From positions 32,001 through 96,000 of IMG/VR virus record IMGVR_UViG_3300038443_002533: DNA of 64,000 bases; one strand, 5' to 3'. The notes below the pieces were generated by a model. It saw only the letters and a list, made by a program, of their open reading frames with translations. It searched no databases and was not told the origin of the DNA. Shown piece after piece: positions 6,350 through 30,482 of the stretch; position 1 is the first letter of the stretch, and each line of letters starts with the position of its first letter. Made by a program: the position numbers and the translations under genes. Source of the stretch: a virus (taxonomy: Duplodnaviria; Caudoviricetes).

Positions 6350-6898
6350 ATGCACAACCACTACGTCAATCAACCGCTCGCGCAAGTTCCCTACGACGAT
6401 ATCTTCGTGGGTATGCCCGTTAAAGGCGCCCGCGGCGTACCGGGTAAGGTCGTCCATAAGTCCATCCCGAGTTTCAGTGAAGAGGGGTGGATTCGGATCG
6501 ACTGGACCAACCACCCGCAGCAAGCGAACCATCACAGCTACTTCAAAGACGTCATCGTCCAAGAAGTCGCCCTCGAACCGGTCGTCGAGAAACGTCGTCT
6601 GGTGGTGAAAGCCAAGCTCTTTACCTTCACCCCGATCGCCCGCGGCGCGGTGATGCATCTGATGCTGTACCAACCGTCGCCGGCGACTCGCGCCGCACTC
6701 CCGCGTATCGATCCCAAAACCATCATCACCCAATTGTCGTTGTGGCAAAGAGAAGAGAGCACCGATGGTGACGAGGTGCATGAAGGTCCGTATGAAATCA
6801 TGTCGGTGTTCCGTGATCCCAAGAATGGTGACGAGGTCTGGCACGTGGTGTTCAAACACCTCGATCTGTGCGAGGAAGTGGCGAGGGACGTACCGTGA
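6350..6898 (+). CDS. Hypothetical protein, paralogue 3 with an extra C-terminal domain
   Basis: PLAQVPYDDIFVGM...GWIRIDWTN. Confidence 0.65.
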   Translation: MHNHYVNQPLAQVPYDDIFVGMPVKGARGVPGKVVHKSIPSFSEEGWIRIDWTNHPQQANHHSYFKDVIVQEVALEPVVEKRRLVVKAKLFTFTPIARGAVMHLMLYQPSPATRAALPRIDPKTIITQLSLWQREESTDGDEVHEGPYEIMSVFRDPKNGDEVWHVVFKHLDLCEEVARDVP

Positions 6899-7455
6899 CA
6901 CGGATCGCCATCATCGGTACGGCTGGGCGGGATAAGACTAAGCCCATGACCCCTGGGTTGTGGCGATGGATGCTGCGCGACGCTTATAGCCGTGTCCCGA
7001 AAGGCGCCCATGTGGGGTCCGGGGGTGCGGCATGGGCTGACCATCTGGCGGTCTCGATGTTCTTGTTCGGCCATGCCGGTGAAATCACCCTGTTTCTCCC
7101 CGCCCCTTTCAAGAATGGTCAATTCGTGGAAGATGGTTGGAAAAGTGCAGGAGCCATCGCGAATTACTACCACCGCCAATTCAGCCGCATCATCGACCGT
7201 GATACCTTGGCCCAAATCGGGGAAGTGATCCGGCAACATTGGGAAGTCGAGAACAGCCCGATTCGGATCGAAGAAGAGCCGTCTTCTCCCACCAGCCGCG
7301 GTATGTTTGCACGCAATGCCAAAGTCGCGCAGATGGAAAAAATGTTAGCGTATACCTTCGGGGAAGGCGATGAGCCTGCTGATGGAGGTACGCTCGATAC
7401 CTGGAACAAATGTCAAGGTGAGAAAACCCACATCACCTTGCCGTACATTTACTAA
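6895..7455 (+). CDS. SLOG-superfamily (YspA/DprA-like) nucleotide-binding protein
   Basis: IAIIGTAGR, SGGAAWADHLAV, FARN and DGGT motifs; GTG start overlaps the upstream TGA. Confidence 0.65.
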   Translation: MTRIAIIGTAGRDKTKPMTPGLWRWMLRDAYSRVPKGAHVGSGGAAWADHLAVSMFLFGHAGEITLFLPAPFKNGQFVEDGWKSAGAIANYYHRQFSRIIDRDTLAQIGEVIRQHWEVENSPIRIEEEPSSPTSRGMFARNAKVAQMEKMLAYTFGEGDEPADGGTLDTWNKCQGEKTHITLPYIY

Positions 7456-7787: not shown

Positions 7788-7817
7788 CTCAGGTATGGGC
7801 ATCTGCCCATACCTGAG
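7788..7817 (+). terminator. Perfect 13-bp hairpin
   Basis: CTCAGGTATGGGC-ATCT-GCCCATACCTGAG. Confidence 0.6.
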
Positions 7818-7836
7818 GAATGTTTCGATATGGCGC

Positions 7837-7860
7837 TAGAATTTTTCAAAACCATATAAC
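7837..7860 (+). promoter_or_regulatory. Early-type promoter variant heading the membrane-protein array
   Basis: TAGAATTTTT-N6-CATATAAC, same spacing as the other copies. Confidence 0.55.
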
Positions 7861-7929
7861 AGTGGTGAATAGGAAAAGGAATACCTCCTTTATCCCCCTT
7901 GATAACTAACAACTTTAAAAGGATTCATC

Positions 7930-8286
7930 ATGAACTTCATCAAAAATCTGTGGAACAAAGTCAAGTCGTTCTTCTCGAATATGTTCAGCCGCAAAGCTGA
8001 AGCCAAGATCGAGACCGTCACTACCCCGGCAGCAGTGGCTCCGGTTGCCGCTACCCCGGTCGAGTCCGTTACCGCTGAAGTCGCGGCTGACGACAACACT
8101 GCTAAAGAAGCCCGCATCACTGAGCTTTTCAACAGCATCATGGGTCTGGCCAAGTTCCGTAACTATTCGCTGACCGAAGCCTTCCATGCTGCTCGTGAAG
8201 GTGATGAAGCGACCCTGGCGCGCATCGAACACGAAATGAACATCAAGAAGTACAAAGCTCCGAAGCACAACCGCAAAGCTGCTTAA
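7930..8286 (+). CDS. Array member 1: N-terminal amphipathic helix, soluble body
   Basis: MNFIKNLWNKVKSFFSNMF; AACTAACAAC leader; ends in AA. Confidence 0.8.
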   Translation: MNFIKNLWNKVKSFFSNMFSRKAEAKIETVTTPAAVAPVAATPVESVTAEVAADDNTAKEARITELFNSIMGLAKFRNYSLTEAFHAAREGDEATLARIEHEMNIKKYKAPKHNRKAA

Positions 8287-8331
8287 TCTTTCCCCGCCGT
8301 CCAATCCATAACTAACAACAAGGATATCATC

Positions 8332-8733
8332 ATGTTTGCTTTTCTGAAGAATCTGTACAACCGCCTGGTCGATCGCTTGGCTTGGGCTCACACCAAGATC
8401 ACCCGTTACGCGGTCCGCCTCGCCATTCGCGCTAACGGACTCGACTTTGATCGTCGCACCGGAAAAGGTGGGGTGCCTTTCATCGTGACGTTTGCTCAAC
8501 GCGCCGCTGGCTTTCTGTTGTATGTTCTCGGTTTCGTCGTATGTGTGCTGGTCCCCACGTTCTTGATGACTTACGTGGTAACGACTTTGGTGTCGTTGCT
8601 GCTGGGTCAAGTCATCGGTGGCGTGATTGGCTTCCTGATCGGTTCGGCTTTCGGTATCGATCTGGTGTTTGTGACCCAGCGCGTTGAGCGCACCCTGCGT
8701 GAACTGAATGCACAATTCGGCTACGCCGCTTAA
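8332..8733 (+). CDS. Array member 2: multi-pass membrane protein
   Basis: MFAFLKNLYNRL; long hydrophobic stretch; leader motif; ends in YAA. Confidence 0.8.
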   Translation: MFAFLKNLYNRLVDRLAWAHTKITRYAVRLAIRANGLDFDRRTGKGGVPFIVTFAQRAAGFLLYVLGFVVCVLVPTFLMTYVVTTLVSLLLGQVIGGVIGFLIGSAFGIDLVFVTQRVERTLRELNAQFGYAA

Positions 8734-8763
8734 TCTTCTTACAATTAACAACAAGGATCAATC

Positions 8764-9249
8764 ATGAACTACCTCCGCAATCTCTGGGCCGGCATCAAAG
8801 CATTCTTCTCGCGTATCTTCGGCAAGAAAACCCGCCCGGTTGAAGTGTATGAATCGAAAGATGAAGCACCGAAAGAAGTCAAGGTGTTCGATACGACGCT
8901 GGCCTTCGAAGCCGCTTACAACGAGGCCGAAGAAATCGAATACAAGGCTGAGTGGAACAACGGCACCGGTTACTACGACCACGCAGCTGAAGGCAACCAT
9001 GCTCCGAAGCTGGAAGTCGGCCAAATCGTCAAAGCCCATAGCCCGTACCCAAACAACCGCAAGTTGCTGATTGTCGGTACCGAACTGGGTAATGTCGTGA
9101 TCTTCGAACGTTACACGGCCGGCGCCCATGGCGTTTATGTGTGGAATGCAGCCGCTCAGTTCGAACGCGCTTACGGCGATAAGTTGGAGCGTCCGCTGAC
9201 GGCTGGTAACATCCGCTTCATCCTGAGCCTGGCCAAAGTCCCGGCTTAA
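8764..9249 (+). CDS. Array member 3: amphipathic N-terminus plus a globular domain shared with 12991..13728
   Basis: MNYLRNLWAGIKAFFSRIF; LEVGQIVK...LLIVGTELGNVVIFERY. Confidence 0.8.
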   Translation: MNYLRNLWAGIKAFFSRIFGKKTRPVEVYESKDEAPKEVKVFDTTLAFEAAYNEAEEIEYKAEWNNGTGYYDHAAEGNHAPKLEVGQIVKAHSPYPNNRKLLIVGTELGNVVIFERYTAGAHGVYVWNAAAQFERAYGDKLERPLTAGNIRFILSLAKVPA

Positions 9250-9291
9250 TCCATTCGTAGCCCAATCTCGAACTAACAACAAGGAACTATC

Positions 9292-9702
9292 ATGAACCAA
9301 TTCTTCACCCGCATCTGGAACCACATCAAAGACGGCTACTGCTTCGCTCGCGATTACATCGCCAACAAAGTCGCCAAGATCGATCTGTACGGCGATCGTC
9401 TGATCGCACAAGCCGTAGCGGAGGACAGCTTCACCAAGCGTCTGCAAGGCATGCTGTGCAAAGTCGCCGCCTTCGTTCTGGCTTTCTTCACGGCCTTCAC
9501 CGCCGGTTACATCATCGGCATGGTGTTCGGTCTGCTGCTCGGCCCGATCCTGGGCTTGATCGCCATCCCGCTGGCTTACATGGTCGGTGAAGATTTCGGC
9601 AGCGCCATCACCCGCGCTCAGCTGAAGATCCGTATCGCTAATCTGTTCGCCAAAGAAGTGCGCGTGACGGAAGTCGAAGACATCGCTTTCGCGGCCGCCT
9701 AA
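9292..9702 (+). CDS. Array member 4: membrane protein
   Basis: MNQFFTRIWNHIK; two TM-like segments; leader motif; ends in FAAA. Confidence 0.8.
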   Translation: MNQFFTRIWNHIKDGYCFARDYIANKVAKIDLYGDRLIAQAVAEDSFTKRLQGMLCKVAAFVLAFFTAFTAGYIIGMVFGLLLGPILGLIAIPLAYMVGEDFGSAITRAQLKIRIANLFAKEVRVTEVEDIAFAAA

Positions 9703-9746
9703 ACAACACGGGGAACTCCGGTTCCCCATCTTTAAGGAATCTCTTC

Positions 9747-10112
9747 ATGAACTTCATCAAGAAATGGTACAAGCGCATCGTCGGTTGGCTGGCTGCCCCG
9801 ATCGCGCAAGCCATGGATTTGGTTGCCGAGTATACGGCACCGCTCATCGCTGTCACTAACGGCATCAAGATCGACTGGTCCTGGCGTCTGCTCGGTCGTC
9901 TGTGCCTGGCGGGTCTGGTGTTGTTGGGCGCGATGATCTACGTCGCCTTTGGCATTATCCTGTCCATCGCCGGCCTGACTCTGCTGTTCGGCTTACTGCT
10001 GAACCCACTGGTGGCTAACATCCTCGCCCTGATGGGCGTGGGCTATGTGGCGTACGACGTGGTCAAAGCAATCGATGTTCAGCGCGCCGATGTCGCCGCT
10101 GAGCCCACTTAA
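9747..10112 (+). CDS. Array member 5: membrane protein
   Basis: MNFIKKWYKRIVGWL; about three TM-like segments. Confidence 0.8.
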   Translation: MNFIKKWYKRIVGWLAAPIAQAMDLVAEYTAPLIAVTNGIKIDWSWRLLGRLCLAGLVLLGAMIYVAFGIILSIAGLTLLFGLLLNPLVANILALMGVGYVAYDVVKAIDVQRADVAAEPT

Positions 10113-10130
10113 TTCCTCAAGGATAGCAAC

Positions 10131-10493
10131 ATGGACTTCATCAAGAAACTCATCATGGGTGCGGCGAAACTTGCATACGGCATCTTCATCGCTCCGATCG
10201 TCGAACTGAAGAACCTTCTCAAGAAAACCGCTGCCGAGAAAGTGCTGACGGTACTGAACGCTGCGTCGCGGGTGATCATCCTCGCTTCGTGGTTCACCGC
10301 TGTGCCGGCATTGCTGGTCACCCTGGCCTGGGTGTGGTTCTGGATCTCGTTGGTCTTCGCGTTCGTCTGCCTGGGCTTTGCCATCGCCGGCGGTGGTCTG
10401 GGCATGGCGCTGGTCATGGCTGCGATCAAAGCCCGCACCGAACAAGACGTCGAAGCACCCGTGGCTGACATCGCTGAACCGGTCTTCGCCTAA
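10131..10493 (+). CDS. Array member 6: membrane protein
   Basis: MDFIKKLIMGAAKL; hydrophobic core. Confidence 0.8.
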   Translation: MDFIKKLIMGAAKLAYGIFIAPIVELKNLLKKTAAEKVLTVLNAASRVIILASWFTAVPALLVTLAWVWFWISLVFAFVCLGFAIAGGGLGMALVMAAIKARTEQDVEAPVADIAEPVFA

Positions 10494-10499
10494 AGCATC

Positions 10500-10772
10500 A
10501 TGCGGCACTTTCTGAAAACCTTAGCCCAAGCCATCTACCGTCACACGGTGGGTGGCCTGGTGCGGTTATGCCGTCATACGCAGACTGCTTGCGTGGATGA
10601 AGAAGACAAACGGTACGTGGGACGCCTCGTGCTGTACAGTGCTTTCTGCCTCTGCGCGTGGTGGTTTCCCGGCGCGGCAGCGATTCTGCTGACGTTACGC
10701 ATCATGGCTTTCGGTGATTTCCTCACCATCGTCAGTAACATTTATCAACAAACGGCCAACGCCTACACCTGA
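10500..10772 (+). CDS. Array member 7: small membrane protein
   Basis: MRHFLKTLAQAIY; hydrophobic C-terminal half. Confidence 0.7.
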   Translation: MRHFLKTLAQAIYRHTVGGLVRLCRHTQTACVDEEDKRYVGRLVLYSAFCLCAWWFPGAAAILLTLRIMAFGDFLTIVSNIYQQTANAYT

Positions 10773-10811
10773 CTTCAGGGGTGGGCAGTTGTCCACCTTT
10801 CTGGAGTGATC

Positions 10812-11111
10812 ATGCGGAAGCTGTTTGGTTTCATCAAGCATTTGTTCTTCGCAGCGAAAGTCATCGTCGGTGCCGTTGTGGCGCCGGTGGTGTCTCTGGT
10901 TGCGACCACCCTGCAAGCTAAGCCGATCAGCTTAGGTCAGCTGACCTTTGCGTTCTGGCGGCTGTTGGTGTGGCTGTTCTTCGTCCTGTGTGCCACGACC
11001 TCGGTCGGCGTGCCTCCCCTGATCGCCCTGCTGTTCTTGGCAGATCTGGCAATCGTCGGGGTGCAAATCGTCGGTGGCGTGGTACTTCAACTTAAGGAGT
11101 CACCAGCATGA
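10812..11111 (+). CDS. Array member 8: membrane protein
   Basis: MRKLFGFIKHLFF; GGAG RBS favours ATG 10812. Confidence 0.7.
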   Translation: MRKLFGFIKHLFFAAKVIVGAVVAPVVSLVATTLQAKPISLGQLTFAFWRLLVWLFFVLCATTSVGVPPLIALLFLADLAIVGVQIVGGVVLQLKESPA

Positions 11112-11464
11112 ACCAATTCATCGACACCCTCTCGGTGTTCATCGGCAACATCCTGCGCCTGAAGCCCACGGGTTGGCAGGAAGCCCGTCGCGTGGCAGCC
11201 CAGATGCGGCAAACCCGTCTCGAATTCAAACCGTCCAAAGTGGTGATCGACGGCGAAGAAACGGATGTGGTGGCACCGCATTCCCCGCTCGCGTATCTGG
11301 GCGAAGCAGTCCTCGACGCGCTGGGTTTCGTCGGCGTCGTCTGGCTGATCCACAAAATCGTGATGGGGTTCCTCGTCGCATTGCCATGGTTGTTGGTGAT
11401 CGCGGCGCTCGGTCTCATCCTCCGGGCCAGCGGGAGTAAGTCGCCCGAACCCCAGGTATCGTGA
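11108..11464 (+). CDS. Array member 9: membrane protein
   Basis: MNQFIDTLSVFIGNIL; two C-terminal TM-like segments; AAGGAG RBS. Confidence 0.75.
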   Translation: MNQFIDTLSVFIGNILRLKPTGWQEARRVAAQMRQTRLEFKPSKVVIDGEETDVVAPHSPLAYLGEAVLDALGFVGVVWLIHKIVMGFLVALPWLLVIAALGLILRASGSKSPEPQVS

Positions 11465-11517
11465 ATCTCATTCAAGTCAATCAACGTACTTATCAAGTCA
11501 ATAAAAGGAAACGAATC

Positions 11518-12225
11518 ATGCAATCCATCAATCAAGCCAAAGAAGCCACCCGTCAACCGTCGGCCAAGGAACTGAACCACTCGTTCACCGTGGTCAAAAG
11601 CCAGCTCACTGAGCTGCGCAAAAAGCTCCACACCGCCCAAGGTGAAGAGCGCCGCAACATCGAGTGCGAAATCACCACGCTGCTCAAGTCGATCGGCCTG
11701 GAACACGTCGAACTCGAAGTGCGCACCGACGGCGCCCCGGAAGCCGACACCACCAGCATCGGTGCCAAGATCGCCGTGGCGCTCCAGGACGCTACGACGG
11801 AAGCGGCCAAGCACGTCCCCGAGACCGCGTCGAGCGACGCTGCCGCTGCTCAACCCGGCCTGTGGGCCCGCTTCAAGGCCTGGGTCAGTGCGAACAAAAA
11901 GAAGACCATCGCCGGTGGTCTGGCCGTACTCACCGGCGCTGCCGGCCTGTGGCTCTGGCTGCGTGGTAAAAATATCAGCACTGCTGTATCGTCTGTGTCC
12001 GGCATGACGGAAGTGCCGAGCACCGACACGCTCCCGCTCCCAGCGGAAACCAGCGACGCATCGATCTTCGCTCGCGCTGGCGAGTGGATCGTGCACGCCG
12101 CCGGCGTCGTCAAAACCTGGGGGATCTCGGCCTGGAACTGGGTCAAAGGTCTGTTTAACCGCACCACCACCGCAACGGAGGTAACTGTTGAAAGCGCACC
12201 TGAAGCTGTTCCCGCTGGCGCCTAA
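11518..12225 (+). CDS. Array member 10: coiled coil, one TM segment and internal amphipathic helices
   Basis: AAAAGGAA RBS before ATG 11518; LWARFKAWV and WNWVKGLF helices. Confidence 0.75.
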   Translation: MQSINQAKEATRQPSAKELNHSFTVVKSQLTELRKKLHTAQGEERRNIECEITTLLKSIGLEHVELEVRTDGAPEADTTSIGAKIAVALQDATTEAAKHVPETASSDAAAAQPGLWARFKAWVSANKKKTIAGGLAVLTGAAGLWLWLRGKNISTAVSSVSGMTEVPSTDTLPLPAETSDASIFARAGEWIVHAAGVVKTWGISAWNWVKGLFNRTTTATEVTVESAPEAVPAGA

Positions 12226-12325
12226 GGCGATCCAGCATCCGACCGTCGGCCAAGTGCTGGGGTCACTGCTCATCGCGGCTGCTTTGTTTGTTGGCACGAA
12301 CGTGTTGGCGGGCAATTTTAGCTAA
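12188..12325 (+). CDS. 45-aa single-TM peptide absent from the ORF track (TTG start)
   Basis: GGAGG 6 nt before TTG; MKAHLKLFPLAPKAIQHPTVGQVLGSLLIAAALFVGTNVLAGNFS; ends just before the terminator. Confidence 0.6.
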   Translation: MKAHLKLFPLAPKAIQHPTVGQVLGSLLIAAALFVGTNVLAGNFS

Positions 12326-12332
12326 GCTGTCG

Positions 12333-12380
12333 ACCGATAGGGAGTGGGTTATCCCCACTCCCTCCGGTTGTTTGTTTTTT
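12333..12380 (+). terminator. Classical intrinsic terminator closing the array
   Basis: GGGAGTGGG-TTATC-CCCACTCCC followed by a U-rich tail. Confidence 0.75.
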
Positions 12381-14933: not shown

Positions 14934-17327
14934 ATGACCGATATTCAGAAGGAAGACGCAAAGTCGTTTCAAAACTACTATCGCCATTGCGGCGAACATT
15001 GGGGGCTCGCCGGCGATAGCGCACACAACGACCGCTGCCCGGAATGTAACAAAGAAATTCAACCGTACGAATCCATCGATATCACTAACGGCAAAAACAC
15101 CAACCCGAAAGTGCATCTGTTGTTTTTCGGCGCCAACCCGACGCAGTGGGGTAAAGCTTCCGTGATGGCAACTGCGCGCGCGATCGATCATTTGCAGCGC
15201 ACGGGTTCGTACGTGATTAGCGTTGGCGATAAGGATGATTCGGATGAAGCCGTCGTGAACAAATGGGAATGGTTTAAAGATCTGATTCTGGGGCGGGAAG
15301 AACGTGGCGACACCCAAGACCGCTGGATCGTTGTCGTCGATAGCGGTTCGCCGGGATTCCGGAGAATCGCCACGTTGGGGGTTGGTAACCCGACAGTCAC
15401 CCTCTTCCATCATATTCAGCCTGGCCGCGACACTTATCTTTATCCTGCGGATATTCCCACACATTCGCAACGCCCAGAAAAGCTGCGACAAGTCATTGAG
15501 TATTACCTCAATCGCGGTTTTAACAAACAACTACAAAAGGATATCACCATGGAAACCAAACCGACCATGACCGACGGCAGTCTTCGTAACTTGCTGGTGG
15601 GTGCCCGTCAACTCATCGCTACGTGGGCCAGTGCCCCTCTCCTTGGCGTTGACCACGTTGCTAAACAACAGCAGTCGCTCTTCAGCCCTGAGCATATTGC
15701 CAAGGAGCTGCATAACTTGCGCGATCATCCCAAATACGCGCCGCCGGCGATGATCGATCCACGCATCAATGCGCTGGTCAATGATTTGATTCCCGTGTTT
15801 AACACGGAAGTCGAGCTTAATAAGGAAGAGTCTAATAGCTTCATCTTGCGGCTCGATATGGCAATCGACACGCTCCGCGACGGCGATAAACCGACTGCGG
15901 CGACACCGAAAGAAGAAACCAAGTCAATCAGTCTCGCCGAACTGCACAGCACCGTCGTTAACGCGATCAATCTTCTCAGCGACCCGTCGTCGAATATCGA
16001 TCGGCCTCGAACTATCGAATATCTCACGCATGTGGAAGCTTATTTGCGTGATCGATGCGATCAATCGGCCAGTGACGCATCTAATGGCGGAATACCCGAG
16101 GGAGCGGTGGCTCGGTATCTGGAACAAGCTTTGGGCAGACTGTCGAATGACTTTATTGCGGGACAGCGGGTGTTGGAGAAGAAGTTCGACGAGCTGGCTC
16201 GTACAGCTTACCCGTTCATGCAAAATGCTTTCCTGAGCGCCCCCGCATGGATTTCGCAACCTTACGGTCCGATTCGTCAACCGATGATGGATTCGTTTCC
16301 GAAGATGCCGGATGGCTTCGGCTTCCCCAACCACATCGAGGACCGCGAAAAGTTCGAGTTTTTCCAAGACCCACGTAACCGCGGCCTTCCCCGCCGCGGT
16401 ATTAACAACGGGTTCGGTATGGCTGGCCCGGGAGTACCGGTCGCCCCCAGGGCGGAACCACTGGTAAGTTTCGACGGCATCTTCTTGTTCCACGTCGAAC
16501 ACACGATGGCCCTTGAGACCATCAGATCGACGTATTCGTGGCTCACGCAAACGTATCCAAATGCCAAAAGCATAGTGATTAATTACGATGGCGCCCAAAC
16601 CGACGAGGAAATTGCCGAGCGATACAAGAAAATTTTGACAGAAGTGGTGAGTCGTTATAGCGGGGTCGACGCGTTGCAGGTAAATGTGGTGGTTACGCCC
16701 TCGCTCGCCACCGCGCCCATGGATAAGATAAATCGTATCCGGGATATGTTGAGAACCAGGGTTACTCCCTATACCGCCTTACTGGCTTCCTCTTTCAATA
16801 ATCGCGAAATGCTGATCGTGAGGCTCAATAGTTCGATCAAGTTCGCGCGGAAATGTACCGAAACTAGCTCGTCGAGTTGCGACCCGCAGGGGGCTCAGGT
16901 CAACAACCTGAGTGACTATCGTGGCGTCGTGATGTTCCACGTCAACGATCCGTCCATTGAATTTGCGCTGGGTCAGAATGAAGCGGATATCAACGCAGTG
17001 TTACCGAACGCGCGCCGTTATATGGTCTTTCATCCATCACGGGGAAATCAACCGCTCGATACTTTCTTGCGGGAAGCCATCAGTGATGTGGAACCTCGGT
17101 CCAAGACACAACAAATCCTGCATGTCGTACTCAGTAATGATACGTCAGTGTGGGATGCGCAATTCATGAACGACACGTTGAGTGCATTGATGCAGCTCGA
17201 TCAACCGTGCACGACATTCTACCTTTCCAATGGTAAGTTGGATCGACACAATTTCGCCCACACTTTGACGAACACGCTGCAGCAGTATAGTTTCATGCCG
17301 GGCACACGTGTACAATCGCGTTATTAG
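14934..17327 (+). CDS. Large mosaic early protein, possibly two fused genes (second start at 15549)
   Basis: 797 aa; N-terminal Cys/His cluster (HCGEHW...NDRCPEC); internal leader, RBS and ATG. Confidence 0.6.
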   Translation: MTDIQKEDAKSFQNYYRHCGEHWGLAGDSAHNDRCPECNKEIQPYESIDITNGKNTNPKVHLLFFGANPTQWGKASVMATARAIDHLQRTGSYVISVGDKDDSDEAVVNKWEWFKDLILGREERGDTQDRWIVVVDSGSPGFRRIATLGVGNPTVTLFHHIQPGRDTYLYPADIPTHSQRPEKLRQVIEYYLNRGFNKQLQKDITMETKPTMTDGSLRNLLVGARQLIATWASAPLLGVDHVAKQQQSLFSPEHIAKELHNLRDHPKYAPPAMIDPRINALVNDLIPVFNTEVELNKEESNSFILRLDMAIDTLRDGDKPTAATPKEETKSISLAELHSTVVNAINLLSDPSSNIDRPRTIEYLTHVEAYLRDRCDQSASDASNGGIPEGAVARYLEQALGRLSNDFIAGQRVLEKKFDELARTAYPFMQNAFLSAPAWISQPYGPIRQPMMDSFPKMPDGFGFPNHIEDREKFEFFQDPRNRGLPRRGINNGFGMAGPGVPVAPRAEPLVSFDGIFLFHVEHTMALETIRSTYSWLTQTYPNAKSIVINYDGAQTDEEIAERYKKILTEVVSRYSGVDALQVNVVVTPSLATAPMDKINRIRDMLRTRVTPYTALLASSFNNREMLIVRLNSSIKFARKCTETSSSSCDPQGAQVNNLSDYRGVVMFHVNDPSIEFALGQNEADINAVLPNARRYMVFHPSRGNQPLDTFLREAISDVEPRSKTQQILHVVLSNDTSVWDAQFMNDTLSALMQLDQPCTTFYLSNGKLDRHNFAHTLTNTLQQYSFMPGTRVQSRY

Positions 17328-25652: not shown

Positions 25653-25700
25653 CGGCATACCTACCCTCTACCCGCAAGGGTAGGGGGCAGGGATGTCATG
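25653..25700. terminator. Bidirectional hairpin at a convergent junction
   Basis: ACGGCATA foot; CCCTCTACCC-GCAA-GGGTAGGGGG. Confidence 0.7.
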
Positions 25701-25706
25701 CGGGAC

Positions 25707-27008
25707 TTATGCTTCGTGGAAGTTGTTGGTGGCCATTTCGAACAGCGACAGCCAGAACTTGTTGTGGCGTGCCGCCACGTTCAGCAGCTTGCCGGTGGGT
25801 TGGGTTGCCCACTGGGCGTAAGCCGTGGTGAGCGGCATCATCCGTTTGGCGAAAGACGTGCCTTCTTTGTTGTCTTCCTTGATACGTTTGAGCATCGCGT
25901 CACAGGCGTTTTGCACAGCGCCGGCCTTGTCTTCCAGCGCCTTGAACTGATCCGCCTTGAACTTGATCAGTTCGTTGATGAACGCCAGGCGCTCCTTGAC
26001 GTACTCCAGCAGCTTGTCCGGCGTCACGTCCAGTTTCATGCTGACGATCTTGTTGCTGCCGAAGCTGGTGTCTTGGTCGACCGAGAAACGGATCTTCGAG
26101 AGCATGGCGATCTTGGTTTCGACCGATTGGGCTGGATCGGTGATCTTGTCGCTGTAACCGGCGGCCGTGACTTTCATCTGGGCGATTGCTTTGGTTTCCC
26201 ATTTGTCACCCTTGCCCGGATGCAGATCCAGGCGTTTCATGTAATCGGCGAAGTGACGGCTCAGCACATCCACCACTTGACCGATGTCCGACATCTCGTC
26301 ACCGTTGTAGGCGCCGTAGGCTTGAGCCAGGCCATCGCCGATCGGAATCATCAGACCGTGTTGGTTCTTGGTGGTTTCCAGCACGTAGTTGTTGAAGTCT
26401 TGTTCCTGACGCCCCGCGGTATTGAACAGGTCGAGGAAACTTTTGCCACTGTAGTGGAAGATGTCGGTCATCGAGCTGGTGACCATGGCACCGTCGTTGG
26501 CCAGATAACCTTTCATGCCGGACAGCCGTTCGATCAGCTTCTCGGCATGCTTTTTGTTTTGCTCCAGCGTCGAGAAGTACGTGGTCATCCAGTGTTTGAA
26601 GCCGACCCACATGTTCTTGATCGCCGTGACGATCGCGTCCCAGATCGACTTCAGCGTGCTGGCGATACCTTCCACGCTCAGGCCTTCCGGGGTCGGTTCA
26701 CCGCCCTCGGCTGGCATCGGCAGCGAGATCACGTCAGCCGGATCGGCATCGGAGCCGGCCACGGCCATGTCGCCCACGGCTTCGACCAGTTCGGCTTCGA
26801 CTTGACCGCATTGCGGGGTGATGTCCACCACTTGCACGGCGTCGTTGGCCACGTCCGCCACGTCGGTGATGTGATCGGCTGCCGCCGTGGCTTGGTCGAG
26901 CGCTTGGCTGGCTTCGCTGTGTTCGTCCGCCAGGATCGCTTCCTCTTCGACCGACAGGGTCGGGATCGGGGCGGGTTGCGGTGCCGGGGCTTTCAGATGT
27001 CGTTGCAT
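25707..27008 (-). CDS. Internal head / inner-body protein of the phiKZ gp93/gp162-like paralogue family
   Basis: Acidic propeptide with LSVE sites, followed by IASTLKSIWDAIVTAIKNMW; start reassigned to ATG 27008. Confidence 0.7.
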   Translation of the reverse strand: MQRHLKAPAPQPAPIPTLSVEEEAILADEHSEASQALDQATAAADHITDVADVANDAVQVVDITPQCGQVEAELVEAVGDMAVAGSDADPADVISLPMPAEGGEPTPEGLSVEGIASTLKSIWDAIVTAIKNMWVGFKHWMTTYFSTLEQNKKHAEKLIERLSGMKGYLANDGAMVTSSMTDIFHYSGKSFLDLFNTAGRQEQDFNNYVLETTKNQHGLMIPIGDGLAQAYGAYNGDEMSDIGQVVDVLSRHFADYMKRLDLHPGKGDKWETKAIAQMKVTAAGYSDKITDPAQSVETKIAMLSKIRFSVDQDTSFGSNKIVSMKLDVTPDKLLEYVKERLAFINELIKFKADQFKALEDKAGAVQNACDAMLKRIKEDNKEGTSFAKRMMPLTTAYAQWATQPTGKLLNVAARHNKFWLSLFEMATNNFHEA

Positions 27009-27027
27009 GTTGTTCTTCCAGGAGAAA

Positions 27028-28122
27028 TTAAAGAGAGCCAAGAATCTCGTTGATCGCATTCATGGCGGGGGTGTGTAACGGCTTGGGTAAGGTCGCATCC
27101 AATACCCGTTGATTCTTCAAGCGGATCAACAGGGTGGAGACATCGGCCAAACCAGCTTGATTGCGGATGCGCCCTGTCTTTTTGGCAATGCGTGTCATGA
27201 ATAACAACATCGGCAACCGCGCCAAAATCACGGACCATAGAATTTGTCGGGTCGGCGCCACATCCGGCACATACATCACTTCCCGCATGTCGGGGAAGGT
27301 CACGGCAGGGATAGCGGCGAGCAGTTGCCTAGCGTTATAATCCGAGTTCTCCAAGATGGTGAGCAAACGCTTGAGGACCGTGTCCACTTGGCGGGTGTAG
27401 TTCGGCAGGTGCACCACATCACGCGTGGGCAACATCATCATCGGAGTTTGGTTGAACAGATGGTCGATTCGGTTAAACACTGCGTAGTCCAGATAACTCT
27501 CCAGCATATTCGGTAACACGAACATGTGGATGAATTGCATGGTGTTGCGCTGCACGTAATCGGGATTGGCAGTTTGCTTTCGCTGTTCACTCAAACGAAA
27601 TGCCCGGTGTTGCACGGCCAACAAACTCACGTTCACAGCGATCACAGCCACCCCATGGTGCGGGCTGACAAACCGACCGTTGGGCACTTGCAAGGTTACG
27701 TGGGGAAACGGATGACGGACCACCCGTACCGGCGTAGCATCGGCCCAATGGTCTTCGACATGCTGATAGTCAAAGTCTTCATCGAAGGCAATCACCACTT
27801 CGGCGGTGTGCTTATTAAAGAACACCCCTTTAAAGAGTTGTCCTTCGCCAAACGGGGTGGTGAACTGCAAACTGTTGGCCACACTCAAGGCATTGATACT
27901 GACGTTGCTGTAATAGCGATCACTGGGTAAGCTTAACGGTACGCTTAACGACTGCAAGAATTTGACGAGCAGATGGTCACTGGCCACGCTATAGCTGGCG
28001 TGACGATAGTGTTGCAGCAAGGTGATGAGATTTCGCTTCAAGCCATCTTGCACCGCTTTCCATTCAGGCAGTCGCGCTACGCCGTATTCTTTCTTGGGGT
28101 CGACATTCACGAGGCTATACAT
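27028..28122 (-). CDS. Conserved phiKZ-like virion protein (gp52-like position)
   Basis: 364 aa, divergent from chimallin as in phiKZ-like genomes. Confidence 0.6.
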   Translation of the reverse strand: MYSLVNVDPKKEYGVARLPEWKAVQDGLKRNLITLLQHYRHASYSVASDHLLVKFLQSLSVPLSLPSDRYYSNVSINALSVANSLQFTTPFGEGQLFKGVFFNKHTAEVVIAFDEDFDYQHVEDHWADATPVRVVRHPFPHVTLQVPNGRFVSPHHGVAVIAVNVSLLAVQHRAFRLSEQRKQTANPDYVQRNTMQFIHMFVLPNMLESYLDYAVFNRIDHLFNQTPMMMLPTRDVVHLPNYTRQVDTVLKRLLTILENSDYNARQLLAAIPAVTFPDMREVMYVPDVAPTRQILWSVILARLPMLLFMTRIAKKTGRIRNQAGLADVSTLLIRLKNQRVLDATLPKPLHTPAMNAINEILGSL

Positions 28123-28387: not shown

Positions 28388-28472
28388 TAAACTGATCACC
28401 CAGGAAAGTGGTCAATAAACAGTTTGTTTGCGCAAACAAATTACAACAACTTGTACAAAAAAGGAAATAAGC

Positions 28473-30482
28473 ATGAAAGGTACTCAAGTCACGGGCTCCA
28501 CCAACACCCAGCAAACCGCAGGTCAGCCGAACGATCTGTACGGTGGCGCAGCGCAAGCTTCGCAGGGTCAAGGTCAAGCCAACTACCAGACGCCGCCGCA
28601 ACCGCAAGGTGCACCGGTCGGCGGTCAACGTCAAGCCGGCGCCGGCCTGCTGTTCCGCGGCGGCGCACTCAACCAGGGCCGTGACAACAACGGCCGCGAC
28701 CTGGGCGAGCTGACCAAGAAGATGCAGGACTTCTACGAAAAGGAGAAGGACAACGAACTGGTGGGCTGGAACGTCCGCGTGGTGCCGATGGCGCGTGATG
28801 CCATCAACACGGCACAGAGCGGCTACAGCAACAAGATCGCGATGATCCTGGTGATCGCCGACCGCGGCGACAACCGCGCAGCGTACCACACGCTGCTGCT
28901 GGCTTCCGACATGGCACCGGCCCCGGCCACCCGCGGCAACGACCTGTACGGCAGCTACGGCCAAGACCGCGTCACCGCACCGCGCACCCCGGCCACCCTG
29001 GCCGACGATGCCCTGGCCACGGTGATCCGTCAACGCGTCGGTCAGCTGATGCCGCAAGCCGAGATCTTCTCGGCCGACTGGAGCCAAGTCCCGACCAACT
29101 TCAAGATCGACGATCCGTACAAGGTCGCCAGCATCTTCATGAACGCGATCCGTGCCTGCGCCTGCGAACTGGAAACCAAAACGCCGGGCTTCAAGTTCAG
29201 CCGTCTGGCCGACGTCGCTGCCGACAGCTCCTCGCTGCTGGTCGACTCGATTCACCTGAACCAAGACCAAGCCAACCCGCCGGTCGAAGCGTTCGACGCC
29301 GCTGGCCTGCCGATCCGTGCTGAAATCGTGTCGGACTTCCGTTCGGAACAGCAACGCCAGGGCGGCGCCCAGCAGGACAAGACCGAGAACACCGCGGGCG
29401 TGATGGAAATCGGTCGCGTGCTGGCCTACACCTCGCTCAACATCGATCCGGTCGCCGGCCGTCGCAACCGCTACGTCGTGGGTGGCAACCAAGGCAACTC
29501 GAACGACACCCAGGAATACTCGGGCGAGATCACCATCTCGGGCTTCGACGCCGGCGTCCTGCCGGACCTGGGCAACGTGCTGCTGCTGATCTCGACGATG
29601 CTGCCGCTGTTCGACCAACAGAAGTACGGTCCGCAGTGGTTGCGCAGCTTCCTGCCGGCGCATCTGCAACTGCATGGCGGCCCGGGCCGTTCGAACTTCC
29701 GTCCGCGTGACCTGGGCGCGACCAACTTCGACTACGGTGCCAAGATCGGCGACGCCGTGGGTCCGTTCCCGACCCACGAAGCCAGCTTCGGCAATGACGA
29801 GTTCTACCGCCTGGTGAACTTCATCATGCAGCCGTATCCGGCCTTCTCGATCGACGTGCCGGTGGCAGGTGCCGATACCTGGTTCCTGCGCGTGTTCGCC
29901 GAAGCCACCGAAGTCGACGGCGCTCGCCAAGCCATCATCAACGCGATGGATGCGATGACCGAGAACCGCTTCAGCGCGATCTTCAACCAGACGGCGTCGC
30001 GCCAGATCGTCCTGCCGCGCACCGAGCGCGTGCTGAACGGTTACTACACCGACGACCAGGGCCGCGTGCGTGACCTGCGCGAAATCGATATGCTGTACCT
30101 GCTCAACGCCAAAGGCCACGAGCAGCCGGATATCGCCAAGCGCTGGGCCAACACCTTCGGTGGCAGCAACGACTACCAGCTGGCCGAGCGTCTCAAGCTG
30201 ATCGAAATGGTGGTGCACCCGACGGTCACCGGCATCTCGATCCACAAGACGTTCCACCCGGACTTCCTGGTGGCGATGGACCAATCCATCGCGCAGTCGC
30301 AGTTCCAGCCGAAGATCGTGATCCCGGACTCGGACGACCGCATGACCGTGCGTCAATCGGCCGGCCTGGCACAAGCCGGTGCCCTGGTGGCGAACTTCCA
30401 CACCACCATGTTCACCAGCGCGCCGAGCTACACCGGCAATACCGCAGGTTACCGCGGTATGGCCCACACGCGCGTGTACTGA
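28473..30482 (+). CDS. chmA: Chimallin, major phage nuclear-shell protein (phiKZ gp54-like)
   Basis: About 669 aa; strong codon bias; disordered Q/G-rich N-terminus; directly upstream of the nvRNAP beta-prime gene; AAGGAA RBS before ATG 28473. Confidence 0.8.
   Translation: MKGTQVTGSTNTQQTAGQPNDLYGGAAQASQGQGQANYQTPPQPQGAPVGGQRQAGAGLLFRGGALNQGRDNNGRDLGELTKKMQDFYEKEKDNELVGWNVRVVPMARDAINTAQSGYSNKIAMILVIADRGDNRAAYHTLLLASDMAPAPATRGNDLYGSYGQDRVTAPRTPATLADDALATVIRQRVGQLMPQAEIFSADWSQVPTNFKIDDPYKVASIFMNAIRACACELETKTPGFKFSRLADVAADSSSLLVDSIHLNQDQANPPVEAFDAAGLPIRAEIVSDFRSEQQRQGGAQQDKTENTAGVMEIGRVLAYTSLNIDPVAGRRNRYVVGGNQGNSNDTQEYSGEITISGFDAGVLPDLGNVLLLISTMLPLFDQQKYGPQWLRSFLPAHLQLHGGPGRSNFRPRDLGATNFDYGAKIGDAVGPFPTHEASFGNDEFYRLVNFIMQPYPAFSIDVPVAGADTWFLRVFAEATEVDGARQAIINAMDAMTENRFSAIFNQTASRQIVLPRTERVLNGYYTDDQGRVRDLREIDMLYLLNAKGHEQPDIAKRWANTFGGSNDYQLAERLKLIEMVVHPTVTGISIHKTFHPDFLVAMDQSIAQSQFQPKIVIPDSDDRMTVRQSAGLAQAGALVANFHTTMFTSAPSYTGNTAGYRGMAHTRVY

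Follow-up and report, generated by a model that had tools for sequence, protein, structure and literature searches.

An early-class operon of a nucleus-forming phage with a common amphipathic leader, a candidate portable membrane anchor

Nine consecutive genes (g1-g9) of one phage operon start with a related cationic amphipathic helix of 18-20 residues, hereafter the leader. This leader may well be a portable in-plane membrane anchor carried by an accessory early set of membrane proteins, a reading to which we assign a probability of about 0.5 and in which we infer membrane binding, topology, timing, and purpose. The operon occupies positions 7836-12363 of the window (the whole 64,000-nt stretch of DNA analysed) and forms one unit comprising a phiKZ-type early promoter, 11 plus-strand genes, and a terminator (Table 1). 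The nine N-termini quoted in the preliminary description were all correct, and all 11 genes were found on the plus strand where it had placed them.

The source is an uncultured, giant, nucleus-forming phage, a rhizosphere chimallivirus from plant roots. The nucleus-forming life style had been proposed from the sequence, and a match to chimallin (PF25677, E 2e-20) agrees with it.

Table 1. Features of the operon and of the related internal-head helix (window positions).
Feature	Position	Strand	Description
Hairpin	7790-7816	+	Ends the upstream unit; inverted repeat; kept in L005 and L006
Early promoter	7826-7882 (core 7836-7869)	+	Core CTAGAAT TTTTCAAAAC CATATAAC AGTGGTGAA
g1 (118 aa)	7930-8286	+	Leader; Ala/Val/Glu-rich variable linker; conserved helical C-domain with basic tail; no TM
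g2 (133 aa)	8332-8733	+	Leader; cytoplasmic helix; two-TM hairpin; paralogs g4 and g5
g3 (161 aa)	8764-9249	+	Residues 1-47, leader and linker; residues 48-160, fused soluble alpha/beta domain
g4 (136 aa)	9292-9702	+	42-residue helix begun by the leader; two-TM hairpin; C-terminal helix
g5 (121 aa)	9747-10112	+	Leader; two-TM hairpin; paralog g2
g6 (120 aa)	10131-10493	+	Leader continuous with first hydrophobic segment; about 3-4 TM
g7 (90 aa)	10500-10772	+	Leader; basic cytoplasmic part; short hydrophobic hairpin
g8 (99 aa)	10812-11111	+	Leader merging into TM1; about 3 TM
g9 (118 aa)	11108-11464	+	Leader; 60-residue basic cytoplasmic part; two TM
g10 (235 aa)	11518-12225	+	Helical N-domain; one Gly/Ala-rich TM; ATG with AAGGA ribosome site
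g11 (45 aa)	12188-12325	+	Single-TM peptide; start overlaps g10 end; no leader
Intrinsic terminator	12339-12363	+	10-bp stem with 7 GC pairs, then T-run
Leader-like tandem amphipathic helix	26580-26669	-	In a PF12699 internal-head protein (residues 131-160), immediately following an S-V-E protease-type site

The preliminary description had placed the genes in a single early transcription unit. The unit is bounded by the terminator hairpin on one side, with an equivalent hairpin 3' of g11 in three relatives, and by a promoter of the phage's own early class on the other. The 34-nt weight-matrix match at 7836 scored 34.9 bits, whereas shuffles peaked at 10-21. The matrix has 19 copies in the genome, all on the plus strand and almost all intergenic, including those ahead of chmA (28363) and of an RNA polymerase beta gene (43645). 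Because the same promoter class precedes these two genes, early expression is likely, as had been suggested. The extended 57-nt promoter block has only three copies in the genome, and the block upstream of g1 is kept in five phages. A sigma-70 scan missed the operon promoter, though it matches the phage's early class. It agrees with the published phiKZ and 201phi2-1 consensus (...TTTRARR..TATATTAC...GTG; PMC7058600 Table 2) and thus carries the TATATTAC-type signature of Chimalliviridae early (virion RNA polymerase) units. Additionally, a root-metatranscriptome contig of 4,480 nt corresponds exactly to 7853-12329; the RNA-library contigs over the operon are metatranscriptomic and carry neither time, strand, nor proof against DNA carry-over.

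For validation of the leader, a profile was built without the tested member and scored on all 15,941 N-termini possible in the 272-kb genome. The resulting ranks for g1 to g9, in order, were 1, 2, 1, 1, 9, 47, 7, 68, and 11, so the profile is significant; the weakest members are therefore g6 (rank 47) and g8 (rank 68). The nine leaders are all amphipathic: their hydrophobic moment (Eisenberg scale) is 0.40-0.57, whereas the background is 0.25 +/- 0.13. They carry a net charge of +1 to +4. Only 2.4% of the N-termini elsewhere in the genome are equally amphipathic and cationic. The Heliquest-type D score falls in the lipid-binding range (1.6-1.9) for the leaders of g1, g3, g5, and g8, and is 0.7-1.3 in the remaining ones, where g4, g7, and g9 reach only the 'possible' lipid-binding range. 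The N-terminal segments contain 6-10 Lys and Arg, versus 0-5 in the tails, which fits an N-in topology.

As previously described, two members are soluble (g1 and g3, without any hydrophobic stretch), and g2 and g4-g9 are membrane members with hydrophobic stretches of 27-62 residues. The g1 leader is nearly invariant across 13 database homologs, whereas the linker varies and is of low complexity. In the AlphaFold2 model of g3, the domain (pLDDT >90) is preceded by a helix at residues 3-19 and a disordered stretch at residues 20-43 (pLDDT <55). Homologs of this domain (P0021-P0029), encoded by other jumbo phages, are leaderless; the leader is thus portable, as g3 joins leader and linker to a domain that stands alone elsewhere. 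The g4 model (pLDDT 83) has helices at residues 3-44, 47-83, and 85-135. Since the leader is modelled as part of a long helix packed on the TM hairpin, it could be structural in g4, a protein for which only six cluster representatives were found among 1.84 billion proteins. The best-conserved operon member is g8 (89%), and g7 is 82% identical to its L004 ortholog. The closing TM peptide, g11, starts at TTG/GTG (TTG here) with a GGAGG site ahead of it, and its identity to orthologs (84%, 58%, and 36%) indicates a real conserved gene, kept in L005, L006, and L019.

The view that a common leader sits on diverse cargo was overstated in part. By hhalign, g2, g4, and g5 are full-length paralogs (95-96%; bodies alone 84.5%), and g1 and g3 share leader and linker over residues 1-51 (97%); part of the leader sharing is therefore plain gene duplication. 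What stands is the portability documented by the g3 fusion. These paralogies, together with the large paralog families common in jumbo phages, would also fit a leader with no special role, as the slowest-evolving remnant of one ancestral small membrane protein duplicated in tandem. We consider this quite improbable: the bodies of g6-g9 have no relation to other members detectable by hhalign, the g3 domain has its independent leaderless homologs, and the g1 leader persists while linkers differ. Moreover, leader dS (0.65-1.2) is similar to that of the gene bodies, while leader dN/dS is lower (0.25 versus 0.32-0.44), which shows selection on the leader peptide itself, with purifying selection more stringent than on the bodies.

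The same comparison bears on conservation at the RNA or DNA level, whether as an AT-rich translation-initiation region or as a cassette through which early genes are shuffled by recombination, like the T4 promoter-early stem-loops. The first 45 nt of each gene have a GC fraction of 0.36-0.51 versus 0.55-0.62 in the remainder, and an upstream CTAACAACAAGGA sequence is common to g1-g4. However, all phage genes show a similar dip (0.49 versus 0.545), the CTAACAAC element also lies upstream of leaderless genes, and the N-termini of other genes show no F, I, K, N enrichment of this pattern. Paralog leaders share 44-71% nucleotide identity with no long identical tract, and their synonymous sites are nearly as diverged as elsewhere. 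The genome-wide dip and these last two results largely refute conservation at the nucleic-acid level, which we regard as highly improbable.

The operon is kept in at least four other uncultured phages of about 226-271 kb. It was not found in the relatives of about 220 kb, nor in four cultured chimalliviruses (phiKZ-like, RP12, FLC6, and FLC9 phages). Since it is missing from these relatives and from model phages with the same life cycle, it is unlikely to play a core part at the early infection vesicle. The membrane remodelling, vesicle docking, or superinfection exclusion suggested in the preliminary description would be conjectural roles for the operon. Gene order is fixed at the 3' end (g5-g11), and gene content varies at the 5' end, with gains and losses. 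Because the operon is confined to one clade, with 5' genes gained and lost, we consider it more likely, from distribution, that the set targets the host envelope or competitors (by exclusion, or by blocking membrane-based defence) than that it serves a core step of the life cycle.

Under the membrane-anchor reading, the accessory early operon would supply a set of small inner-membrane proteins, and a cationic in-plane helix of the MinD-anchor type would attach them to the host membrane on its inner face. In the soluble g1 and g3, the leader would be the only anchor; in the seven integral members, it would lie on the cytoplasmic face before the hairpin TMs, with the N-terminus inside. The leader may have spread in two ways, through tandem duplication of genes (g2/g4/g5 and g1/g3) and, in g3, through its joining to a soluble domain that already existed. 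Within minutes of infection, all products would thereby be brought to one and the same membrane surface.

Protein-protein contacts are another role of amphipathic helices, and the closest other helices of the genome occur in a soluble virion family, PF12699, which counts against a membrane anchor. The leader might instead be a docking or oligomerisation peptide, which would either bind a common partner (a host insertase, protease, chaperone, or g10) or bundle the products into one hetero-oligomeric membrane complex. The 11 co-transcribed, partly translationally coupled genes and the fixed g5-g11 order suggest a complex, and a C-terminal Ala (often Ala-Ala) in 26 of 40 orthologs fits common C-terminal recognition, for example by a protease. 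The two invariant Trp/Lys motifs of g10, LWARFKAW and WNWVKGLFNR, also point this way. However, these motifs, noted earlier as similar helices inside g10, reach only an i-E of 1-2 with the leader profile, so that part of the preliminary description finds weak support. As the leader composition is that of an interfacial membrane helix, with a Trp/Phe face and a Lys/Asn/Ser face, a docking function seems rather doubtful.

Outside the operon, the leader profile best matched all four PF12699 paralogs and one neighbour, in each case right after an S/A-x-E protease-type site; the top match lies in the gene at 25710-27059 (minus strand; Pfam 48.5 bits). The four true PF12699 members of the genome scored 45-127 bits, whereas none of the operon proteins matched PF12699 in the Pfam scan (cutoff of 27 bits). 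In profile-profile comparison (hhalign), leader and internal-head helices aligned with a probability of 85.6% (P 5.6e-6), and eight of nine internal-head helices outscored every one of 82 other strongly amphipathic helices in the genome. Hexamers are shared too, such as WNHIK in g4 and in the internal-head protein of a relative. However, the reversed internal-head block scored 21.0 versus 21.5 unreversed; because the two are almost equal, the likeness is one of helix class and residue make-up rather than proven homology, and it may be convergence.

As injected proteins, members of PF12699 co-localise with the vesicle; their function has been termed an unsolved mystery. Given the same helix class and the early-class promoter, the leader could be a dedicated address for the early infection vesicle or for the complex of injected PF12699 proteins and DNA, through the same membrane preference or through helix-helix pairing with the first mature PF12699 helices, with an operon that modifies, tethers, or opens the vesicle. 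Such targeting is possible. As a dedicated function of the leader we find it unlikely, given the reversed-block score and the absence of the operon from relatives and model chimalliviruses that likewise make a vesicle. Additionally, the leaders would be on the cytoplasmic face, but the injected proteins are believed to lie within the vesicle.

Among known systems, a Sec, Tat, or lipoprotein signal peptide was rejected for the leader: by inspection, g1-g5, g7, and g9 have a charged or polar residue every 3-4 positions in place of an unbroken hydrophobic core of 7-15 residues, with no RR and no lipobox Cys, whereas the g6 and g8 leaders appear to be the charged start of a signal-anchor. Holins were likewise rejected, as the sole match was phrog_526 (g2, E 0.045), the promoter is of the early class, and no lysin adjoins. 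T4 Imm and Sp are, like the operon proteins as we read them, small, early, accessory phage inner-membrane proteins acting at the envelope. They differ from this eleven-gene unit with a common leader, and the ten proteins scanned (g1-g10) had no Pfam or PHROG match at E <= 0.01.

The HCV NS5A anchor and helix alpha-0 of PspA/Vipp1 are N-terminal amphipathic helices of membrane-remodelling proteins. HCV NS4B also has an N-terminal amphipathic helix (PMC13537761). Like the leader under the membrane-anchor reading, these are in-plane helices before a TM hairpin or a soluble body, which place the protein on, or bend, a membrane used by the virus. Unlike them, the operon proteins show no homology and no Pfam match to PspA_IM30, and curvature induction by the leader would be pure speculation.

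The g1/g3 leader core, K-V/I-K-S/A-F-F, extended by G in homologs, matches that of the B. subtilis MinD anchor KGMMAKIKSFFG, a proven, transplantable membrane anchor able to bring GFP to the membrane. Leader and MinD anchor alike are short, cationic, and amphipathic, with a helix face rich in Phe, and the occurrence of the leader on unrelated bodies parallels the transplantable MinD helix. The leaders also have the features of MinD/FtsA-type anchors, namely a positive amphipathic helix with a bulky hydrophobic face, and a terminal helix followed by a flexible linker (the disordered stretch of g3 and the variable linker of g1). However, the leader is N-terminal rather than C-terminal, is longer (about 18-20 residues), and has a conserved Trp. 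It occurs on integral as well as soluble proteins of a phage operon with no ATPase switch. The match, a motif of 6-7 residues, could be chance or convergence.

The first post-cleavage helices of PF12699 phiKZ_IP proteins (phiKZ gp93/95/97 and Goslar gp58) share the Trp-x-x-Ile/Val-Lys-x-Phe-Phe type pattern of the leader, and both protein sets would be present as infection begins. Unlike PF12699 proteins, which are virion gene products, the operon proteins have no fold of about 300 residues, no propeptide, and no S/A/G-x-E cleavage sites; their leaders start at Met1, and their genes lie behind an early promoter. A single address system comprising the leader and the initial helices of mature PF12699 proteins, in which a Trp/Phe-Lys helix would hold both the injected and the first new membrane proteins at the vesicle membrane, seems rather improbable. 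If it exists, the operon would be the first phage-encoded membrane-protein set of the early infection vesicle, and the leader would be a pointer to the function of the PF12699 proteins.

Eleven plus-strand genes (g1-g11) occupy positions 7930-12325, most of them with a ribosome site of the AAGGA type 6-9 nt 5' of the start. The preliminary description had called two members soluble and most multi-TM, which agrees with the present prediction. No hydrophobic stretch was found in g1 and g3, whereas g2, g4, g5 and g9 have one of 47-59 residues, equivalent to a two-transmembrane (two-TM) hairpin, g7 has a short hairpin, and g6 and g8 have about 3-4 TMs, the leader continuing into the first of them. 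The closing TM peptide, g11, is conserved and 45 residues long. For g10, the claim of internal leader-like helices has weak support: they are invariant among orthologs, but the leader profile gives them i-E values of just 1-2. In Pfam and PHROG, g1-g10 had chance-level matches only (E of at least 0.004), and ESM Atlas returned no family for g10 or the g3 domain, at scores of 0.78-0.83. The g3 and g4 models had no Foldseek match in the PDB at E <= 0.001, and a BFVD search with the g3 model matched two viral proteins. Table lists the coordinates.

Coordinates of the operon genes and associated features (window positions unless G000, the full 272-kb genome, is named)
Feature	Position	Strand	Remark
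g1	7930-8286	+	
g2	8332-8733	+	
g3	8764-9249	+	
g4	9292-9702	+	
g5	9747-10112	+	
g6	10131-10493	+	
g7	10500-10772	+	
g8	10812-11111	+	
g9	11108-11464	+	
g10	11518-12225	+	
g11	12188-12325	+	
Anchor gene	6895-7452		conserved, upstream of operon
34-nt promoter-like motif	4670, 7836, 14845, 28363, 38345, 43645	+	weight matrix
CTAACAAC element	4736, 4773, 4993		
CTAACAAC element	7906, 8312, 9273, 14912		just 5' of gene starts
PF12699 paralog	25710-27059	-	between DNA polymerase gene and chmA
PF12699 paralogs	G000 102205-103626, 103727-105163, 209739-211115		
Shadow ORF	25698-27053	+	length equal to window PF12699 gene; no family match
Chimallin (chmA)	28428-30479		PF25677

The alanine ends of these proteins were also recorded. 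Across the window operon and contigs L005, L006, L009 and L019, 26 of the 40 operon orthologs end in Ala, which is constant in g1, g2, g3, g4 and g10, and Ala-Ala is frequent (e.g., RKAA, FAAA, PAGA); the remaining phage genes end in Ala in 10% and in Ala-Ala in 3%. The tails might serve, in the manner of ssrA, as a C-terminal signal for degradation or recognition.

For the leader, the nine N-termini quoted earlier were all correct. A profile was made from a hand alignment of the first 20 residues and rebuilt leaving out one member each time, and it was run against 15,941 candidate N-termini (every ATG/GTG/TTG opening of at least 30 codons, both strands, whole genome). The left-out leaders of g1-g9 ranked 1, 2, 1, 1, 9, 47, 7, 68 and 11; the leader gives a significant profile. 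All nine are amphipathic as alpha-helices, with an Eisenberg moment of 0.40-0.57 against 0.25 +/- 0.13 in the other 290 crude genes, and their net charge is +1 to +4; a comparable moment and charge occur together in only 2.4% of other N-termini. A Heliquest-type discriminant assigns four leaders (g1, g3, g5 and g8) to the lipid-binding range and the others to the 'possible' range. A signal peptide was dropped by inspection, and a capsid-targeting or nuclear-import signal was dropped because of the membrane proteins and the early promoter.

Selection acts on the peptide, since among orthologs synonymous divergence in the first 20 codons (0.65-1.21) is near that of the gene bodies (0.90-1.40), dN/dS is lower in the leader (0.25) than in the rest of the genes (0.32-0.44), paralog leaders share only 44-71% of their nucleotides, and genes of the phage in general begin with a GC dip. 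A nucleotide-level or translation-start explanation and a recombination cassette were both dropped on the leader dS and the paralog nucleotide identity. The element CTAACAAC precedes g1, g2 and g4, but also genes without a leader; it has 8 copies against 0.9 expected, seven of them on the plus strand, usually with AAGGA next. Early genes appear to use it as a general translational leader that does not depend on the peptide leader. In the strain of the root metatranscriptome, differences from the window cluster in the Ala/Val-rich linker of g1 (7980-8148), including an in-frame GCA insertion after 8028, and the g1 leader is unchanged.

The preliminary description had proposed a common leader on diverse cargo, and profile-profile comparison upheld this for part of the set. 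Shared ancestry accounts for some members: g2, g4 and g5 are paralogous over their full length (95-96%), the g2 and g4 bodies match without the leader (84.5%, E 7e-6), and residues 1-51 are common to g1 and g3 (97%). The match of g1 to g2 and g5 is confined to 15-21 leader columns, and no relation of g6-g9 to other members was detected. The decisive case is g3, in which residues 48-160 are modelled with confidence as an alpha/beta domain (pLDDT above 90). Nine database homologs begin at the domain itself, without residues 1-45; therefore, leader and linker are a module that was joined to a pre-existing protein. No second copy of the domain was found in the full genome. In two other phiKZ-like jumbo phages, leaderless homologs of the domain (L020 6001-6447 and L021 6001-6399) adjoin the gene of a Peptidase_S80 prohead protease.

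The phage genome is complete in IMG/VR (272,470 bp, terminal repeats) and encodes split multisubunit RNA polymerases. It also encodes chimallin (E 2e-20; 72.9 bits, cut-off 27 bits), and these two features together identify a nucleus-forming chimallivirus, as had been implied. Its closest named relative, Burkholderia phage FLC9, has only 41% identity in an RNA polymerase beta subunit. The hosts of the closest cultured relatives are Burkholderia and Ralstonia. The stretch is contained in DNA and RNA runs of rhizosphere and root metagenomes.

The proposal of one unit between one promoter and one terminator was supported at both ends. The 57 nt preceding g1 are kept upstream of g1 in five phages, and this extended block has only three genome copies (before g1 and at G000 169049 and 233857). 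With a looser 34-nt matrix (CTAGAAnnTTTCAnGnCTATATCACTAAAnTGAT), 19 sites were obtained; every one is on the plus strand, nearly all are intergenic and most stand 57-220 nt 5' of a gene. They score 24-47 bits, against a maximum of 21 bits in shuffled genomes. The motif is consistent with the consensus promoters that PMC7058600 (Table 2) lists for phiKZ (TATATTAC), 201phi2-1, OBP and N1M2. Within the genome it precedes chmA, an RNA polymerase beta gene and the g1 operon. In phiKZ-like phages, chmA and the non-virion polymerase are established early genes; the operon is probably transcribed early as well, judged by the promoter class in common. A scan for sigma-70 promoters gave none on the plus strand, and a sigma-54 promoter for the TGGCGC...N motif was dropped by inspection, with no GC at the -12 spacing. 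Downstream of g11 lies a terminator with a 10-bp GC-rich hairpin and a T-run, and three relatives have an equivalent hairpin after g11.

Additionally, a single 4,480-nt contig from one root metatranscriptome spans 7853-12329, starting inside the promoter box and stopping 10 nt short of the terminator. The DNA run covers the operon bounds continuously. Elsewhere the three RNA runs give broken coverage: depth falls to zero at 15675-16141 and 16609-17075, and the interval between these has hardly any. RNA contigs run unbroken through the next early promoter (14845), and contig ends alone are therefore no map of transcript starts. The contig fits one transcript and is supportive only, as metatranscriptome contigs carry neither strand nor time.

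Relatives were located with the upstream anchor gene, and four further viral contigs, 21-271 kb long, contain the syntenic operon (L004/L005, L006, L009 as a fragment, and L019), with ortholog identity of 42-89%. The 3' part, g5-g11, is fixed, whereas the 5' part varies: g3 is absent from two phages, g2 from two, and the order is altered in L019. Only 13 homologs of g1 were found among 5.8 billion proteins, all with the leader and several on 269-274-kb contigs, and the g4 profile found six cluster representatives among 1.84 billion proteins. Neither megablast of the region nor tblastn with g1 and g8 gave a match in 50,697 phage records, and the metagenome-contig scan with the anchor gene and the viral-contig scan with g3 gave none. 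The leader profile found no array in the phiKZ-like phages KEN49, RP12, FLC6 and FLC9 (one chance-level match, in FLC9), nor in four relatives of about 220 kb, where only the PF12699 gene matched. The operon was thus found neither in cultured phages nor in the ~220-kb relatives that have the anchor gene. The anchor gene itself (186 aa, 83-87% identity in relatives) has homologs in Delftia phage RG-2014 and Erwinia phage UCB24 (38-40% identity) and no Pfam match at E <= 0.001.

The most economical explanation is that the leader would act as an in-plane membrane anchor, to which we give a probability of about one half. This reading draws on the physical chemistry of the leader, its position at the terminus ahead of a flexible linker, the positive-inside pattern and a MinD-like core. 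In g1, g3 and their homologs, the core reads K-V/I-K-S/A-F-F with G or S as the next residue. It matches the MinD anchor of B. subtilis, KGMMAKIKSFFG, which brings GFP to the membrane (PMC13537761).

The best non-operon matches of the leader profile, in this genome and six related ones, were all PF12699 internal-head proteins. All four paralogs, and one neighbouring gene, have a tandem amphipathic helix immediately after an S/A-x-E site of the kind cleaved by the phiKZ prohead protease (...KMWDHIKTFFQNI... and ...EIWKTIKEFFARIF...), and a looser version occurs in PF12699 proteins of FLC6, FLC9, RP12 and a phiKZ-like phage. Leaders and block align over 21 columns (probability 85.6%, P 5.6e-6), a score reached by none of 200 column-shuffled blocks; eight of nine single blocks outscore the best of 82 other strongly amphipathic genome segments, but the reversed block scored almost equally (21.0 vs 21.5). 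These controls place leaders and block in the same special helix class, a likeness that does not prove common descent. PF12699 proteins are high-copy in the virion, and many of them, once injected, co-localise with the early infection vesicle; their role has been called a key unsolved mystery. The likeness keeps alive the earlier idea that the operon is tied to this vesicle, but relatives that share this life cycle lack the operon, which speaks against a core role, and we consider the idea unlikely. An uncontrolled complex prediction for g1 and the mature portion of the window PF12699 protein scored 0.01 and counts neither for nor against the idea.

Although the phage is uncultured, the operon supplies a short peptide of 20 residues that is testable in any Gram-negative host. 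If the helix binds membranes, it would be a compact natural N-terminal membrane tag and an example of one anchor spread by a phage over several bodies, and its likeness to the PF12699 helix gives a concrete hypothesis for those proteins, testable in phiKZ or Goslar. Should the leader prove no more than a general anchor for accessory genes, the operon would be an ordinary, though well-documented, instance of early membrane proteins in a jumbo phage. The literature surveyed on the early phase of nucleus-forming phages describes only host lipids, host membrane proteins and injected proteins, and no phage-encoded membrane protein of that phase. Putative accessory functions in host takeover or exclusion would suit a gene set that is early, directed to the membrane and restricted to one clade, and whose 5' end is fluid. 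In this respect, although there is no family match, the set may be likened to the accessory exclusion function of T4 Imm and Sp.
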